51,684 bases of DNA from a virus. Its lineage: Duplodnaviria; Caudoviricetes. Position numbers and translations under genes: made by a program. The stretch lies in the IMG/VR virus record IMGVR_UViG_3300032046_000036, positions 1 through 51,684 of that record. The stretch is one strand, 5' to 3'. Shown piece by piece: positions 43,747-49,505 of the stretch. Each line of letters begins with the position of its first letter. Within the stretch, counting starts at the first letter, position 1. The notes under the pieces are model-generated. The model worked only from the letters and a program-made list of their open reading frames with translations. It was not told the DNA's origin and searched no databases.

Positions 43747-45099
43747 TTAACCTCCTTTTCTTAAAGATAATATATTACTGGGTATTCCTCTAATCCTACG
43801 TTTGGCTATGTCTATATATTCTGGACTGATTTCAATCCCTATGTAATGTCTGCCAAAACTTCTTGCCACTAGGCAGGTAGTCCCTGCCCCTGCGAACGGG
43901 TCTAATACAATACCACTATCAAAACTGGCGCCGCATCCACAGTCAGTAAGTTCAAATCCAATCTTCTTCTGAACCTGTTTGGTAAATAAAGTGTTGGTCG
44001 GAGATGCTTTTATCTGTTCACCTGTTTTATCACGCCATATTTTCTTTATTAGGCAAGGTGCTTTCTTCCAGATAACTATTCTTGGCTTACCACATTTCTT
44101 ACAGATAAATTTAGGGCAGGTTGCCCTAATTGGTATCTCACATAGTTGAGTCGGATAACTTGCGGCGTGTTTTTCGTCTAATGGACAAGTCGGAATAACC
44201 CATACACAACGCTTGTTACGACCTGTTGGGTTAGGGCGTAAATTCCTACCCGCCCTTTCTCCCATTACATATTGATTGGTCTTGGCTTTATATTTGCCCC
44301 TTATCATTTCCCCACCCCACCTGTTCAAAGATTTTGTATAAATATCAAATTGCTGGTCAAAGAAATAATCCGGGCTTTTGGTAAAGAAATATAAATACTC
44401 AAAATCAACTGTGAATCGGTCAGTAGCAGAAGCCGGCATACAATTAGGTTTTGCCCAGATAATGGTATTACGTCTAATCCAGCCTCGCTTTTGCATTTCT
44501 AATACAAACATTTCGGGAATGCCTACCAATGATTTTGATGTCATATAACGCCCTGGTGGAATAAATTGGGGTTGCCCCGGTGCATTAATACTATACCGAT
44601 TTTTGGTTTTTGTAGTTCTATTTTCACCACCAAATCCTTGTAAAGACCCACCGTAACTATCGGCAATATTAAGCCAGCACGAACCATCTCCTTTCAAGAC
44701 CCTCTTTACTTCATCCAAAATATCGCAGAGATGCTTGATGTAAAGCCCTGGGGTAGGCTCAAGACCTAATTCACCACGCCAAGCCCTACATTTTGAGCAA
44801 AAGGCACTGGGGCTATTCCCCCATCCGTGCAAACCCTTTTTAAGGGCAGTATGACTACTTAAAGCGCCACCTATACCCTGCTGGTTTTGATGGATTAACC
44901 GTGCCGTATAATTGACCCAGCGGTGTTGACAGCCGGTTTTGCTATCCCATATAATGGGATTTGTTTTATATGACCTCAGACTCCAATACGGCGGCGATGT
45001 TATAACTATATCTATTGATTCGTTAGGAATTTCCTTTAAGATTTCTAAGGCATTCCCCTGAAGTATGGTATCAATAATATCCTTAACTCGGTATATCAT
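43747..45099 (-). CDS. Beta-class amino (N4-C/N6-A) DNA methyltransferase with Cys-rich insertions
   Basis: ITSPPY, IIWAKPNCMP, H.A.YP, VLDPFAGAGTT; likely start MIYRVK. Confidence 0.9.
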   Translation of the reverse strand: MIYRVKDIIDTILQGNALEILKEIPNESIDIVITSPPYWSLRSYKTNPIIWDSKTGCQHRWVNYTARLIHQNQQGIGGALSSHTALKKGLHGWGNSPSAFCSKCRAWRGELGLEPTPGLYIKHLCDILDEVKRVLKGDGSCWLNIADSYGGSLQGFGGENRTTKTKNRYSINAPGQPQFIPPGRYMTSKSLVGIPEMFVLEMQKRGWIRRNTIIWAKPNCMPASATDRFTVDFEYLYFFTKSPDYFFDQQFDIYTKSLNRWGGEMIRGKYKAKTNQYVMGERAGRNLRPNPTGRNKRCVWVIPTCPLDEKHAASYPTQLCEIPIRATCPKFICKKCGKPRIVIWKKAPCLIKKIWRDKTGEQIKASPTNTLFTKQVQKKIGFELTDCGCGASFDSGIVLDPFAGAGTTCLVARSFGRHYIGIEISPEYIDIAKRRIRGIPSNILSLRKGG

Positions 45100-45115
45100 A
45101 ATTATTATTCCGCCT

Positions 45116-45532
45116 TTAGAACGGTATATTTTCTTCTTCCTCTTGCTCGTGATTCGGCTGGTCTTCCTCTGACCTCTGTTCCGGGAGAACAGCCTGTTTA
45201 TCCGTCTTGGGCAGAAACTGGACTCGCTGGGCAACTACCTCTATACTTGACCTTTTCTGCCCTTCCTTAGTCTGCCACTGATTCATACGCAACCGACCTT
45301 CCACCAAAGCAAGACTGCCTTTCTTGAGATGCTCGGCACAGGCTTCTCCCGTCCGACCCCACACAGTTACTTTGATAAACAGAACACTCTCTTTTTTTCC
45401 CCCATCTTGTGTCGTATAATGCTCATTAACCGCTAAATCAAAAGAACAAACCGCCTTTCCTTGTTGGGAATATCGCAATTCAGGGTCTCGCGTTAGGTTA
45501 CCCATCAGTATCACGCAGTTAAAATTAGCCAT
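45116..45532 (-). CDS. ssb: Single-stranded DNA-binding protein
   Basis: N.VILMGNLTRDPELRY, VEGRL, acidic IPF tail. Confidence 0.95.
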   Translation of the reverse strand: MANFNCVILMGNLTRDPELRYSQQGKAVCSFDLAVNEHYTTQDGGKKESVLFIKVTVWGRTGEACAEHLKKGSLALVEGRLRMNQWQTKEGQKRSSIEVVAQRVQFLPKTDKQAVLPEQRSEEDQPNHEQEEEENIPF

Positions 45533-46587: not shown

Positions 46588-46644
46588 ATTTACGGTCATA
46601 AAGGCAACATCGCAAAACTGGAGAGGCGGTGTTCGGCGATTTTA
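46588..46644. repeat. 57-bp direct repeat of the MTase 3' end; second copy 47816-47872
   Basis: 55/57 identical by eye. Confidence 0.9.
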
Positions 46645-47351
46645 CAGTATTCCTCTGATATTTCTATGCCGATAAAACGCCTGCCTAATTCTTTACAGGC
46701 AACAGCGGTTGTTCCAGAACCGAGAAAAGGGTCAAGGATTAAGTCGTTTTCTTGAGAACACGCAACGATACATCGTTTAGGTATTTCGCTTGGGAACGGA
46801 GCAGGATGAGGATTATTTTTTTCAGGATTTATTCTCCAGATTTCCTTATAATGGAATGCCTCTGGATTAAATTTTGGAGAAAACCTTCCTTTCGTAATCC
46901 AGAATATATATTCAACTATAGGCATAAACCTTATCGGATCTAATACTGGACTATTTCCTCTGTCCCAAATAATCATTTGTCTTATATTAAAAGATAATAG
47001 CCATTCGTGGGGGAAAATTGCCTTATGATTAACTAATCTCGGCTTATGATTATAGAAAATACTTCCGTCATCCTTCAAAACTCTCAAACATTCCTCCAGA
47101 ACTTCTTTTTGATTTTTTTGATAATCCTTTTCTGGTAAATCATCCTTAAACTCTCCATAAGAAATTGCTGATTTAACCCAAGCGTCTTTTGGGTCATGCT
47201 TTTTATTAGCCGAATGTTTATTATACGGAGGGCTGGTAATCACAAGGTTAATACTTTTATCTGGTATATCTTTCATAACTTTAAGGCAGTCTCCACAGAC
47301 AACCTTATTTACCATCTGCGTCCAGTCGGTGATTTTGTTAAGTTTTAGCAT
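46596..47351 (-). CDS. Beta-class amino (N4-C/N6-A) DNA methyltransferase
   Basis: GDCL, ITSPPY, HPAPFP, ILDPFLGSGTT. Confidence 0.92.
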   Translation of the reverse strand: MLKLNKITDWTQMVNKVVCGDCLKVMKDIPDKSINLVITSPPYNKHSANKKHDPKDAWVKSAISYGEFKDDLPEKDYQKNQKEVLEECLRVLKDDGSIFYNHKPRLVNHKAIFPHEWLLSFNIRQMIIWDRGNSPVLDPIRFMPIVEYIFWITKGRFSPKFNPEAFHYKEIWRINPEKNNPHPAPFPSEIPKRCIVACSQENDLILDPFLGSGTTAVACKELGRRFIGIEISEEYCKIAEHRLSSFAMLPL

Positions 47352-47356
47352 ACCTT
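47307..47356. repeat. 50-bp direct repeat of the MTase 5' end; second copy 48816-48865
   Basis: 48/50 identical by eye. Confidence 0.9.
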
Positions 47357-47632
47357 TTTATTTTCTATCGGGAATTTATGACACAATTCATCAAAACAAA
47401 TCTTAAAAAAATCAGGCTTTTGTTCCAGTATTATCTTAAAGGCTGTTTGTATATAAAACGAGTGAATCTTGCTATGACAAAAATAATGGAGGTCAATTAA
47501 ATTGTCTGATTCATTATCTCCACCATATCTTTTAGGTTTAATATGATGAGTCCTTTTAACCAAACTTGTTTTACTTAAAATCTTTTTACAAAAAGGACAA
47601 ATATTCTTTTCCACCTTTGCCGATATATTCAT
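47345..47632 (-). CDS. HNH endonuclease
   Basis: CPFC..HHIKP..GG....NLI.L...CH..IH. Confidence 0.85.
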   Translation of the reverse strand: MNISAKVEKNICPFCKKILSKTSLVKRTHHIKPKRYGGDNESDNLIDLHYFCHSKIHSFYIQTAFKIILEQKPDFFKICFDELCHKFPIENKKVC

Positions 47633-47745
47633 AAAATAAAAAGGGCGTCACCACTCGGTAAAGAGAGGCTGAAGATTTGACTCTTCTGACGCCCTTCAGT
47701 TTTTGGAATTAAAGACATAGACAACCCCTCATTTACCGAGTTATC
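47629..47745 (-). promoter_or_regulatory. Structured leader with 29-aa leader ORF (47718-47629), terminator-like stem and anti-RBS
   Basis: AAGGGCGTCA/TGACGCCCTT plus U-tract; 47653-47670 complementary to 47723-47741. Confidence 0.65.
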
Positions 47746-47747
47746 CA

Positions 47748-47786
47748 ACAATAACAAATTCCCATAGAATGTCAAGAAAAATCTTT
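47748..47786 (-). promoter_or_regulatory. sigma70-type promoter
   Basis: TTGACA (47775-47770), 16 nt, TG-T-TATTGT; preceded by AAAGATTTTTC. Confidence 0.65.
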
Positions 47787-47789
47787 ATT

Positions 47790-48749
47790 CTACAGCAGAT
47801 AGTTTACCGAGCGTAATTTACGGTCATAACGGCAACATCGCAAAACTGGAGAGGCGGTGTTCGGAGATTTTATATATTTTATAATTCTTTTTGCTATCCA
47901 TTCGGCAACAGGCACACTAACCGCATTGCCTATAACTATTCCTCGCACAGAGTCCAGTTTGTTGTTGGGAATCCCTGTAATCTCTCTTTTTCTGTCGGTG
48001 TTAGTTTCCGTAATATAAGTGTCTTGCCATATAAAGGAAGCGTTGCCTCGTTTTCCTTGGTTGACAGTATTGGCAACGACTGTATTCCATTCGTTTCGTA
48101 ATGACCAACCTTTGTCCCCGTAAGATTTTGCTGTAAGGGTGTTAACTTTTGCGATAAGGTTTTCTCCGAATCCGAATTTACGCAACCGCTTATCATCTGC
48201 TCTAATTGTGTTAGCGATATACGTTTCAGCCGTTGGGTCTTGTCTTTCCCCGTCTCTTGCAGAAATACATAACCCCCTCTCCCCCATTTTTTGCTTCTTC
48301 TTATCATCCCCGCCACCGCCTTTTGGCTCAAATAATATTTCGGGTGGACAGATTTTTCCAAGACATCCGACAATGAACACTTTCTTGCGTCTCTGGGCAA
48401 GTCCGAAATATTGACTGTCCAGTAATCTATAAGACCACCCATAGCCGCTTTGGGCCAGCGTTTGAAGAACGATTGCCATATCCCTGCCTTCGTTAATGGA
48501 AAGGAGTCGGGGAACATTCTCAATAAGTAACCATTGCGGGATAAGTATGTTGACAATCCGCATACACTCAAAGAAGATAGAACTTTTTTCGCCTTTAAGA
48601 CCCTTGCCTTTTGGGTTGGCGTTTGATATGTCCTGGCAAGGGAATCCGAACGCAATAAGGTCAAGATGTCGGTATGTTTCGGGACTTTCGGCCAGTGCTT
48701 TTTCAAGACTTTCAAAGCATACGGCATTATTTCCACTTGACCGATACAT
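47790..48749 (-). CDS. C5-cytosine DNA methyltransferase subunit B (motifs IV-VIII and X)
   Basis: GFPCQD, ENV, QRRKKVF, GNAVSVPVAEWI; AGGAGG 6 nt before ATG. Confidence 0.85.
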   Translation of the reverse strand: MYRSSGNNAVCFESLEKALAESPETYRHLDLIAFGFPCQDISNANPKGKGLKGEKSSIFFECMRIVNILIPQWLLIENVPRLLSINEGRDMAIVLQTLAQSGYGWSYRLLDSQYFGLAQRRKKVFIVGCLGKICPPEILFEPKGGGGDDKKKQKMGERGLCISARDGERQDPTAETYIANTIRADDKRLRKFGFGENLIAKVNTLTAKSYGDKGWSLRNEWNTVVANTVNQGKRGNASFIWQDTYITETNTDRKREITGIPNNKLDSVRGIVIGNAVSVPVAEWIAKRIIKYIKSPNTASPVLRCCRYDRKLRSVNYLL

Positions 48750-48817
48750 TCAAATCCTCCTCTTTCTATCCCTAAGTCCATTCCTCCGCAACCGGAACAT
48801 AAACTAATAAATTTCAT
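47936..48817 (-). CDS. C5-cytosine DNA methyltransferase subunit A (motifs I-III, beta-like region, IX)
   Basis: SLCSGCGG, VEI, HTDI, SLSDVLE...KYYLS, RKLTPTEKERLQGFP. Confidence 0.85.
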   Translation of the reverse strand: MKFISLCSGCGGMDLGIERGGFECIGQVEIMPYALKVLKKHWPKVPKHTDILTLLRSDSLARTYQTPTQKARVLKAKKVLSSLSVCGLSTYLSRNGYLLRMFPDSFPLTKAGIWQSFFKRWPKAAMGGLIDYWTVNISDLPRDARKCSLSDVLEKSVHPKYYLSQKAVAGMIRRSKKWGRGGYVFLQETGKDKTQRLKRISLTQLEQMISGCVNSDSEKTLSQKLTPLQQNLTGTKVGHYETNGIQSLPILSTKENEATLPLYGKTLILRKLTPTEKERLQGFPTTNWTLCEE

Positions 48818-48860
48818 TTATCATCTGCGTCCAGTCGGTGATTTCGTTAAGTTTTAGCAT
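48804..48860 (-). pseudogene. Truncated copy of the 47351 MTase N-terminus (MLKLNEITDWTQMINEIY*)
   Basis: Direct repeat of 47307-47356; overlaps the C5-MTase start. Confidence 0.7.
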
Positions 48861-48922
48861 ACCTTAAATTTGAGCATTATCTATTTGCCTCGTAAAATGC
48901 TTCCGCAAAACCTTGTGGCATA

Positions 48923-49081
48923 TCATCTTTCCTTTTTCGGCACAAATCCAGGACTTGCGATAGAATATTTTCCACCCTTATCAGTTACAATTTTTACGAT
49001 AAAATCACGGCATCCACCTTCTTTAATTCGTTTGACTAAACTATCAATGAGTTTCATCTCTTCAACTGATAGTTTTTTCAT
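48923..49081 (-). CDS. Small hypothetical protein (52 aa, below the ORF-track cutoff)
   Basis: AAGGAGG RBS then MKKLSVEEMKLIDSL...PGFVPKKER*. Confidence 0.55.
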   Translation of the reverse strand: MKKLSVEEMKLIDSLVKRIKEGGCRDFIVKIVTDKGGKYSIASPGFVPKKER

Positions 49082-49094
49082 ATTAGCCTCCTTT

Positions 49095-49505
49095 CTACTT
49101 CTTGAGGTAGCCGTCTATGACCGCTTTGGCTTCCTCAAACCCGTGGCAACAGACGGCAAGATAACCTCGCTGGTTAAGTTTCTTCAGCCAGTCCTCTTGG
49201 ACAGAACTAAGTTGTTCTTTATCTATCTTTAGTTCAAGGAAAAGACTGGCATATTTTGTCCATTTATAATGTCCCTCCGCAAAAATCATTAAATCCGGAG
49301 TTCCAGGGGTATAACCCATTTTCTTTGCTTTACCGCCGGTTCGGGAATTTGTAATAAGTCCCCCCGGAGATATAGTAAAAAGCACATCAGGATATTGAAG
49401 TCGTAAATAGGATACTACCGCCATTTGTAGGTGTTGCTCATCGTGGCGTGGCTTCTTCTCCCGTTTCTCGTGTTCGTAGATGCCGGTTCGTGGGTTAAGT
49501 TTCAT
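49095..49505 (-). CDS. VRR-NUC nuclease
   Basis: E..LQ, G..PGTPDL, LFLELK, S..Q..W...L...GY. Confidence 0.85.
   Translation of the reverse strand: MKLNPRTGIYEHEKREKKPRHDEQHLQMAVVSYLRLQYPDVLFTISPGGLITNSRTGGKAKKMGYTPGTPDLMIFAEGHYKWTKYASLFLELKIDKEQLSSVQEDWLKKLNQRGYLAVCCHGFEEAKAVIDGYLKK

Follow-up and report, generated by a model that had tools for sequence, protein, structure and literature searches.

The window, by which we mean the whole stretch of 51,684 nucleotides that was analysed, is a tailed-phage genome. Its large open reading frames (ORFs) all lie on the minus strand, and PHROGs comparison identifies a terminase, a portal, a major head protein, a tape measure and a tail fibre J. DNA-modification genes are clustered towards the right end of the window; among them are two overlapping ORFs, A and B, together with two N6/N4 methyltransferase genes, an HNH gene and a VRR-NUC gene (Table 1). 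In the 495-residue product of the first N6/N4 gene, Pfam profile positions 1-179 are spread over residues 74-373; the spread suggests that the domain carries an inserted segment of well over 100 residues.

ORFs A and B overlap on the same strand for 814 nt (47936-48749), with frame B equal to frame A minus 1. Neither contains the other: A begins 68 nt ahead of B, and B runs 146 nt past the end of A. The protein collection holds only frame B for the window, and A is missing there. The longest plus-strand ORF of the region encodes 103 residues and gave no match in the comparisons made.

Two direct repeats lie at the edges of the ORF pair, so that each end of the C5 gene bears a copy of one end of the second N6/N4 gene, namely its first ~45 nt and its last ~57 nt. 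From the 50-nt repeat runs an 18-codon leader ORF that overruns the ATG of A, and the 57-nt repeat, read out of frame, forms part of the non-conserved tail of B. Judging from these repeats, a second copy of the N6/N4 gene seems to have had its interior replaced by the C5 gene.

Table 1 Features of the A/B locus and its neighbourhood (positions in the window; pLDDT from the predicted models).
Feature	Position	Strand	Details
ORF A	47936-48817	minus	293 aa; motifs I-III, putative passenger, T element, putative passenger, motif IX
ORF B	47790-48749	minus	319 aa; leader, motifs IV-VIII, putative passenger, TRD core, putative passenger, motif X, non-conserved tail
Shine-Dalgarno match AGGAGG	48756-48761	minus	6 nt before B ATG, within A codons R-G-G
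B start codon ATG	48747-48749	minus	spans A codons E23-C24; TGA just upstream in B frame
Module 1, motifs I-III (SAM-binding strands 1-3)	48665-48817	minus	frame A aa 1-51; pLDDT 86-93
Module 2, motifs IV-VIII (catalytic Cys, ENV, QRR)	48354-48668	minus	frame B aa 28-132; pLDDT 87-98
Module 3, T element	48161-48379	minus	frame A about aa 147-219; selection over aa 156-191; pLDDT 76-86
Module 4, TRD core (conserved part of variable region)	48030-48092	minus	frame B aa 220-240; low monomer pLDDT
Module 5, motif IX	47957-48028	minus	frame A aa 264-287; pLDDT 86-88; aligns with M.HaeIII 255-294
Module 6, motif X helix	47856-47954	minus	frame B aa 266-298; contacts A 15-22 in co-fold
N6/N4 methyltransferase gene, first	43747-45234	minus	495 aa
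N6/N4 methyltransferase gene, second	46596-47351	minus	
HNH gene	47345-47632		
VRR-NUC gene	49095-49505		
50-nt direct repeat	48816-48865		96% identical to 47307-47356 (start of second N6/N4 gene); abuts A ATG
57-nt direct repeat	47816-47872		96% identical to 46588-46644 (end of second N6/N4 gene)

The motifs of a C5 methyltransferase are divided between two frames

Translation of ORF A yields the motif I, II and III strings and, close to the C-terminus, RKLTPTEKERLQGFP; that of ORF B yields FPCQD, ENV, QRR and GNAV. The C5 methyltransferase profile PF00145 matches A at residues 1-50 (profile 1-49, E 3.7e-15), with a second stretch at the A C-terminus, and matches B at residues 24-291 (profile 56-324, E 2.8e-33). 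All of the PF00145 motifs (F.G.GG, PCQ, ENV, Q.R.R, IX and GNAV) were found, shared out over the two frames, and no single polypeptide carries them all. The coordinates confirm the 814-nt overlap claimed in the original prediction, and the translations and the profile scan of both frames confirm its assignment of motifs I-III and IX to A and of motifs IV, VI, VIII and X to B.

Comparison with known enzymes gave the same division. B aligned to residues 68-169 of M.HhaI, and the matches between a profile of the A family and solved C5 methyltransferases were confined to motifs I-III and pre-IX/IX, as in M.HaeIII 1-51 and 255-294. A Foldseek search of the PDB with the chain A model returned no match at E <= 0.001, its weak rows covering the first 47-85 columns, the N-terminal module only.

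The ATG of B stands at the same place in 7/7 close loci, 105 nt before motif IV. It is built from the conserved E/K-C codons of A: among 65 A-family rows, 54 have C24 and 57 have E or K at position 23. A stop codon lies just upstream in the B frame at six of the eight loci examined. The perfect AGGAGG that had been predicted 6 nt ahead of the B ATG, in A codons for R-G-G, is present as described but is peculiar to this phage, the other six close loci having G-rich partial matches. No clear Shine-Dalgarno sequence was seen for the ATG of A in the window, and a promoter and terminator scan of 47500-49200 gave no usable result.

Both frames are open and conserved in independent contigs

Logan contigs of run X1 span 47700-48900 at a depth of ~20x with no differing letter and no gap. 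No RNA run was listed for this stretch. X1 is the only DNA run with it and is probably the source run, so this agreement excludes only assembler error as the origin of the layout. Seven more independent contigs repeat the layout, and for each frame so do about 100 protein clusters. Six of these loci (L001, L002, L081, L082, L083 and L241) match the window in their DNA: the frame map is the same, motifs I and IV are 155 nt apart, and both ORFs are fully open; two others, L161 and L162, are duplicates of L001 and L002. L012 bears the layout at a greater distance, with a 170-nt spacing and no ATG for B. This locus (L012:2145-3661) is GC-rich, carries motifs I-III, the T element described below and motif IX in the +1 frame, and has as its sole candidate B start a TTG preceded at 6 nt by AAGGA; a plain indel in a gene of the M.EcoHK31I type may account for the locus. 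Homologues that keep both frames open, which the original prediction asked for, were found among these DNA relatives; the internal Shine-Dalgarno sequence is perfect in the window only.

A search with B gave 119 listed relatives besides the window protein, of which, scored by pattern, 114 lack motif I and none has motif IX. In the alignment of 105 rows, which includes 104 of the 119 hits picked for coverage, 94 rows start at exactly the Met of B and 101 have Met in that column. The search with A listed 97 relatives, with identity as low as 36% at about full length; by pattern, 37 of the 97 score motif I, the T element and motif IX without any other motif, and most of the others are partial forms or have an extra ENV match or motif X. 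Taken together, the B relatives and the A relatives indicate that gene callers give one frame or the other, contig by contig. A blastn search of the phage collection returned only 12 distant matches, each over 8-20% of the query.

We also permuted synonymous codons in 2000 shuffles that kept the protein and the codon usage of one frame. With B kept, none of the 2000 shuffles left A stop-free in the window (mean 8.8 stops); the same was found at seven of eight loci, with P=0.0135 at L012. With A kept, none left B open in the window (mean 9.1 stops), and this held at all eight loci. Neither frame is open by chance.

Selection alternates between the frames over six modules

In a B-guided codon alignment of seven close loci, leaving out two duplicates and L012, which was too divergent and ambiguous, we scored which codon phase varies most. 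The most variable phase switches six times along the gene, with selection following the order A/B/A/B/A/B. The sign-test p-values are indicative only, as the seven sequences are related and the columns are not independent: frame A is selected over B 1-36, where A holds motifs II-III (p 0.016); frame B over B 37-132, motifs IV-VIII (p 3e-4); frame A over B 133-168, equivalent to A 156-191, the T element (p 0.003); frame B over B 220-240, the TRD core (p 0.035); frame A over B 241-264, A motif IX (p 4e-4); and frame B over B 265-298, motif X (p 0.0025), the phase being ambiguous at B 169-191, a stretch with no assigned content (p 0.66). Amino acid identity in each frame agrees with the phase test. 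Mean pairwise identity at motif IX is 0.76 in frame A vs 0.41 in frame B, and at motifs IV-VIII it is 0.60 in frame B vs 0.39 in frame A.

The motif partition of the original prediction stands as listed, but its four modules are really six, with the T element of A and the TRD core of B added. The stretches between the modules are stop-free, are not selected as protein and are mostly predicted to be disordered, and we read them as passengers.

In the window the T element, which runs CSLSDVLE ... PKYYLS ... helix-hairpin-helix, lies in frame A just after the position of motif VIII. It belongs to no Pfam family and had no profile match among solved structures. Searching 1.84 billion representatives, we found 87 relatives at E <= 0.001, none of which has motifs IV and VI in the same chain.

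The linker between motifs III and IV is missing

Motifs I and IV lie 155 nt apart in the window and in 8/8 rows with the present layout. In single-frame relatives this distance is 186 nt in 78 loci, 204 in 40, 201 in 23 and 189 in 17. Counted in residues, motifs I and IV are 60-65 apart in relatives that carry I-III and IV in the same frame, compared with 51.7 codons here. The codon for A I51 (48665-48667) and that for B L29 (48663-48665), the residue that opens the strand before motif IV, share one base, so that a join at this first junction would leave no linker. Both the spacing and the overlapping codons bear out the earlier claim that the usual III-IV linker is absent. L007, whose motifs I and IV lie 156 nt apart in one frame, was considered as a counter-example and rejected: its shortening falls in the motif II region, and the III-IV linker is kept.

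Frame A of the window contains no -1 slippery heptamer, and seven loci have neither such a heptamer nor a homopolymer run in common. One record, P0057 (319 aa, 59% identical to B), has the first 41 residues of A running in frame into the B leader and then motif IV, without motif III. P0057 may represent a genuine fusion or result from an error of one base. It is one of the 119 listed B relatives, and a single chain with the B leader as connector, real or error, is therefore on record at least once.

Structure predictions for the separate chains and the pair

AlphaFold modelled chain A alone (65-row alignment) with confidence at residues 1-55, 155-215 and 270-293 and with pLDDT below 50 at 59-85, 96-151 and 219-265; the well-modelled parts coincide with the selected modules, and the remainder are the putative passengers. 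Chain B alone (105 rows) was confident at 11-145 and 270-300 and poor at 150-268, the variable region. Its leader, residues 1-27, is helical in the monomer model and is an exception among the passengers.

Three co-folding runs of A with B 1-300, a check suggested with the original prediction, gave a median ipSAE of 0.83 (range 0.81-0.87), and the best of three controls scored 0.00. Of the solved complexes, 58 of 80 reach this mark, as do 2 of 110 mismatched pairs. The runs share at least 59% of their contacts, with partner pLDDT of at least 61, and the contacts of lowest error join A 2-3 to B 30-33 and A 15-22 to B 279-287. These predicted contacts are the ones that the C5 methyltransferase fold needs: strand 1 next to strand 4, and the first helix packed against the helix of motif X. 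Single-chain relatives have been solved, so the score may come from the model's memory of these C5 methyltransferases. We take the co-fold to show that the two chains together resemble one such enzyme, a likeness and not a proof of binding.

Related loci divide the modules differently

In a motif-pattern screen of 321 sources, 94 of which lack the IV/VI anchor, we found three partitions in DNA: the T element alone in the +1 frame of genes with all ten motifs in their main frame (16 loci, including duplicates); the T element and motif IX in the +1 frame (four loci, one a duplicate: L003, L004 and L116); and motifs I-III, the T element and motif IX, as in the window. A sequence added after the screen showed a fourth at L321:1141-2460, where one ORF has motifs I-III, T, IX and X and the other only motifs IV-VIII and the TRD core. 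At several loci, L003, L004 and L005 among them, the second frame is open and selected across the C5 gene and supplies motif IX and/or a small accessory element.

Several further arrangements were observed. In genes that keep all ten motifs in one main frame, which include L005, L006, L007, L010, L019, L023, L077, L089, L101, L107, L113, L119 and L155, the +1-frame T element stands at a fixed 268-271 nt after motif IV and is better conserved than the main frame there; it looks like a separate small overlapping gene. The overlapping ORF of L321 begins 15 residues before PCQ and ends just before motif X, and just upstream lies the end of another methyltransferase gene that also has a IX-like motif and motif X in different frames. 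Motifs IX and X stand together in the +1 frame at L016, L026, L045, L046, L048 and L057, and at L016, the one locus of these that was read through, they form a separate ORF downstream of the stop of the T-bearing ORF; such a layout would mean that one enzyme is spread over three ORFs, or else that the variable region contains a frameshift. L171:1477-2234 belongs to a different small C5 subfamily, with motifs I-III in the +1 frame relative to motif IV, a linker of normal length and a P-T-P-T-A-type motif in the second frame.

We built a tree of the catalytic core from the 50 rows that were left once duplicates and stop-containing rows had been dropped. In it the window groups with L241, L001, L002 and L082 (support 100/97); L012 comes next, followed by two loci with the EcoHK31I layout, L004 and L116 (90/76). 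L081 and L083, despite sharing the layout of the window, fall elsewhere, on long branches, so that no single origin is demonstrated. The layout most likely derives from an EcoHK31I-like gene in which a deletion of ~31 nt cut the III-IV linker and moved motifs I-III to the second frame.

Discussion

M.EcoHK31I was reportedly described by Lee, Kam and Shaw in 1995 as a C5 methyltransferase made of two polypeptides. As outlined in two papers, this enzyme of E. coli HK31 has the target YGGCCR; its alpha chain carries motifs I-VIII, X and the TRD, its beta chain carries motif IX and is encoded wholly inside alpha in another frame, and activity requires both chains, part of the N-terminus of the second being dispensable (PMC2836561, PMC3404938). 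The account of M.EcoHK31I in the original prediction agrees with these descriptions. The A/B pair resembles that enzyme, as described there, in drawing two polypeptides from two frames of one DNA and in placing motif IX on the chain of the second frame. By the same description of M.EcoHK31I, the pair departs from it in three respects: motifs I-III are on the motif IX chain and the III-IV linker is gone; A and B each reach past the other, whereas M.EcoHK31I has a small gene inside a large one; and B lacks motifs I-III, unlike the large chain with motifs I-VIII and X. M.AquI, as described in PMC3404938, has motifs I-VIII on alpha and IX-X on beta, encoded by adjacent genes with a single cut in the variable region. 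It is likewise a natural two-chain C5 methyltransferase, which the window pair is predicted to be, but in that account it has no long dual-coding overlap, whereas the window has motifs IX and X in different frames and an overlap of 814 nt. A full-text literature search returned M.EcoHK31I and M.AquI as the only natural two-chain C5 forms, and no natural enzyme with motifs I-III on the second chain or family-wide two-frame layout. A two-frame C5 methyltransferase is thus an already known kind, and the new part is the allocation of motifs I-III.

We consider it likely, from the sequence comparisons and the predicted models, that one stretch of phage DNA gives rise to two collinear chains that form a single, obligate two-chain C5 DNA cytosine methyltransferase. 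Chain A, started at 48817, would provide the SAM-binding strands (motifs I-III), the T element and motif IX. Chain B, started at the internal ATG at 48749 behind the Shine-Dalgarno match inside the codons of A, would provide the catalytic core (IV-VIII), the TRD core and the motif X helix. The passengers over the other chain's modules would serve as long tethers, and the chains would assemble module by module into the usual two-domain fold, with strand 1 of A pairing with strand 4 of B, the first helix of A resting on the motif X helix of B, and motif IX of A entering the small domain. We infer that both chains are produced, that they bind each other and that they methylate DNA. The original proposal of a two-chain enzyme with its SAM-binding N-terminus on the motif IX chain is supported by the conservation, the open frames, the alternating selection, the missing linker, the lack of frameshift signals and the co-fold. 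Counting against the two-chain model are the strong Shine-Dalgarno sequence unique to the window locus, the ATG of A without a clear one, the in-frame join in P0057, and the poorly predicted variable region of B (150-268) together with the unclear phase at B 169-191.

A gene with at least three frame changes in 1 kb can resemble a pseudogene or the product of an error-prone assembly, and a simple indel could explain the distant L012, which lacks an ATG for B and has a spacing of 170 nt. That indels broke a normal methyltransferase gene and left a second frame open by accident is already contradicted by the present data, and we regard it as extremely improbable: a second assembly of the probable source run shows no differences, the same breakpoints recur in seven independent contigs at 45-77% identity, no shuffle of 2000 keeps either frame open, and selection tracks whichever frame carries the motif. 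The six selected modules do follow the canonical order of I-III, IV-VIII, variable region, IX and X, and P0057 is equivalent to a partly fused form, as might be expected if serial programmed frameshifts (-1, +1, -1, +1, -1) joined the modules into a normal enzyme of one polypeptide. However, a single chain by FRAMESHIFTING would require five efficient shifts, and these would have to occur without a -1 slippery heptamer in frame A of the window and without a shared heptamer or conserved homopolymer in the seven loci. Strands 3 and 4 are three strands apart in the class I methyltransferase fold, and the first join would put no residues between them. The ATG of B is kept in 7/7 loci, with a stop just upstream in 6/8, and A keeps its own stop. 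We therefore think serial frameshifting very unlikely.

Both proteins might also be made without forming an active methyltransferase, for example if the core on B were inactive and A acted as a regulator or decoy that binds SAM or DNA. The poor prediction of the B variable region would fit such a pair, and the T element in the +1 frame of all-ten-motif genes (16 loci) means that the second chain may have a role of its own. Yet the catalytic residues and all ten motifs are selected only in the frame where they are needed, the motif sets of A and B are exactly complementary, and M.EcoHK31I provides a precedent in which such a pair is active; an inactive pair seems unlikely to us.

An active two-chain enzyme, if made as we propose, would be the first natural C5 methyltransferase known to us with the SAM-binding and catalytic halves of its Rossmann-like sheet on separate chains. 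Its genes also offer a clean, testable case of same-strand overlap, 814 nt long, along which the selected frame changes six times. For split-methyltransferase engineering, it would indicate a naturally tolerated cut between motifs III and IV. Pipelines call one ORF only, so that the methylases of such phages seem truncated, with half of the enzyme left out of the record. The four partitions raise a broader idea, which we hold to be evenly balanced between right and wrong: the enzyme may be a "zipper" of two full-length collinear chains, in which either frame can be the folded one at each of six positions while the other is a disordered passenger, the allocation itself being evolvable. If this is true, short indels would shift modules between subunits without loss of function, a mode of evolution peculiar to long same-strand overlaps.
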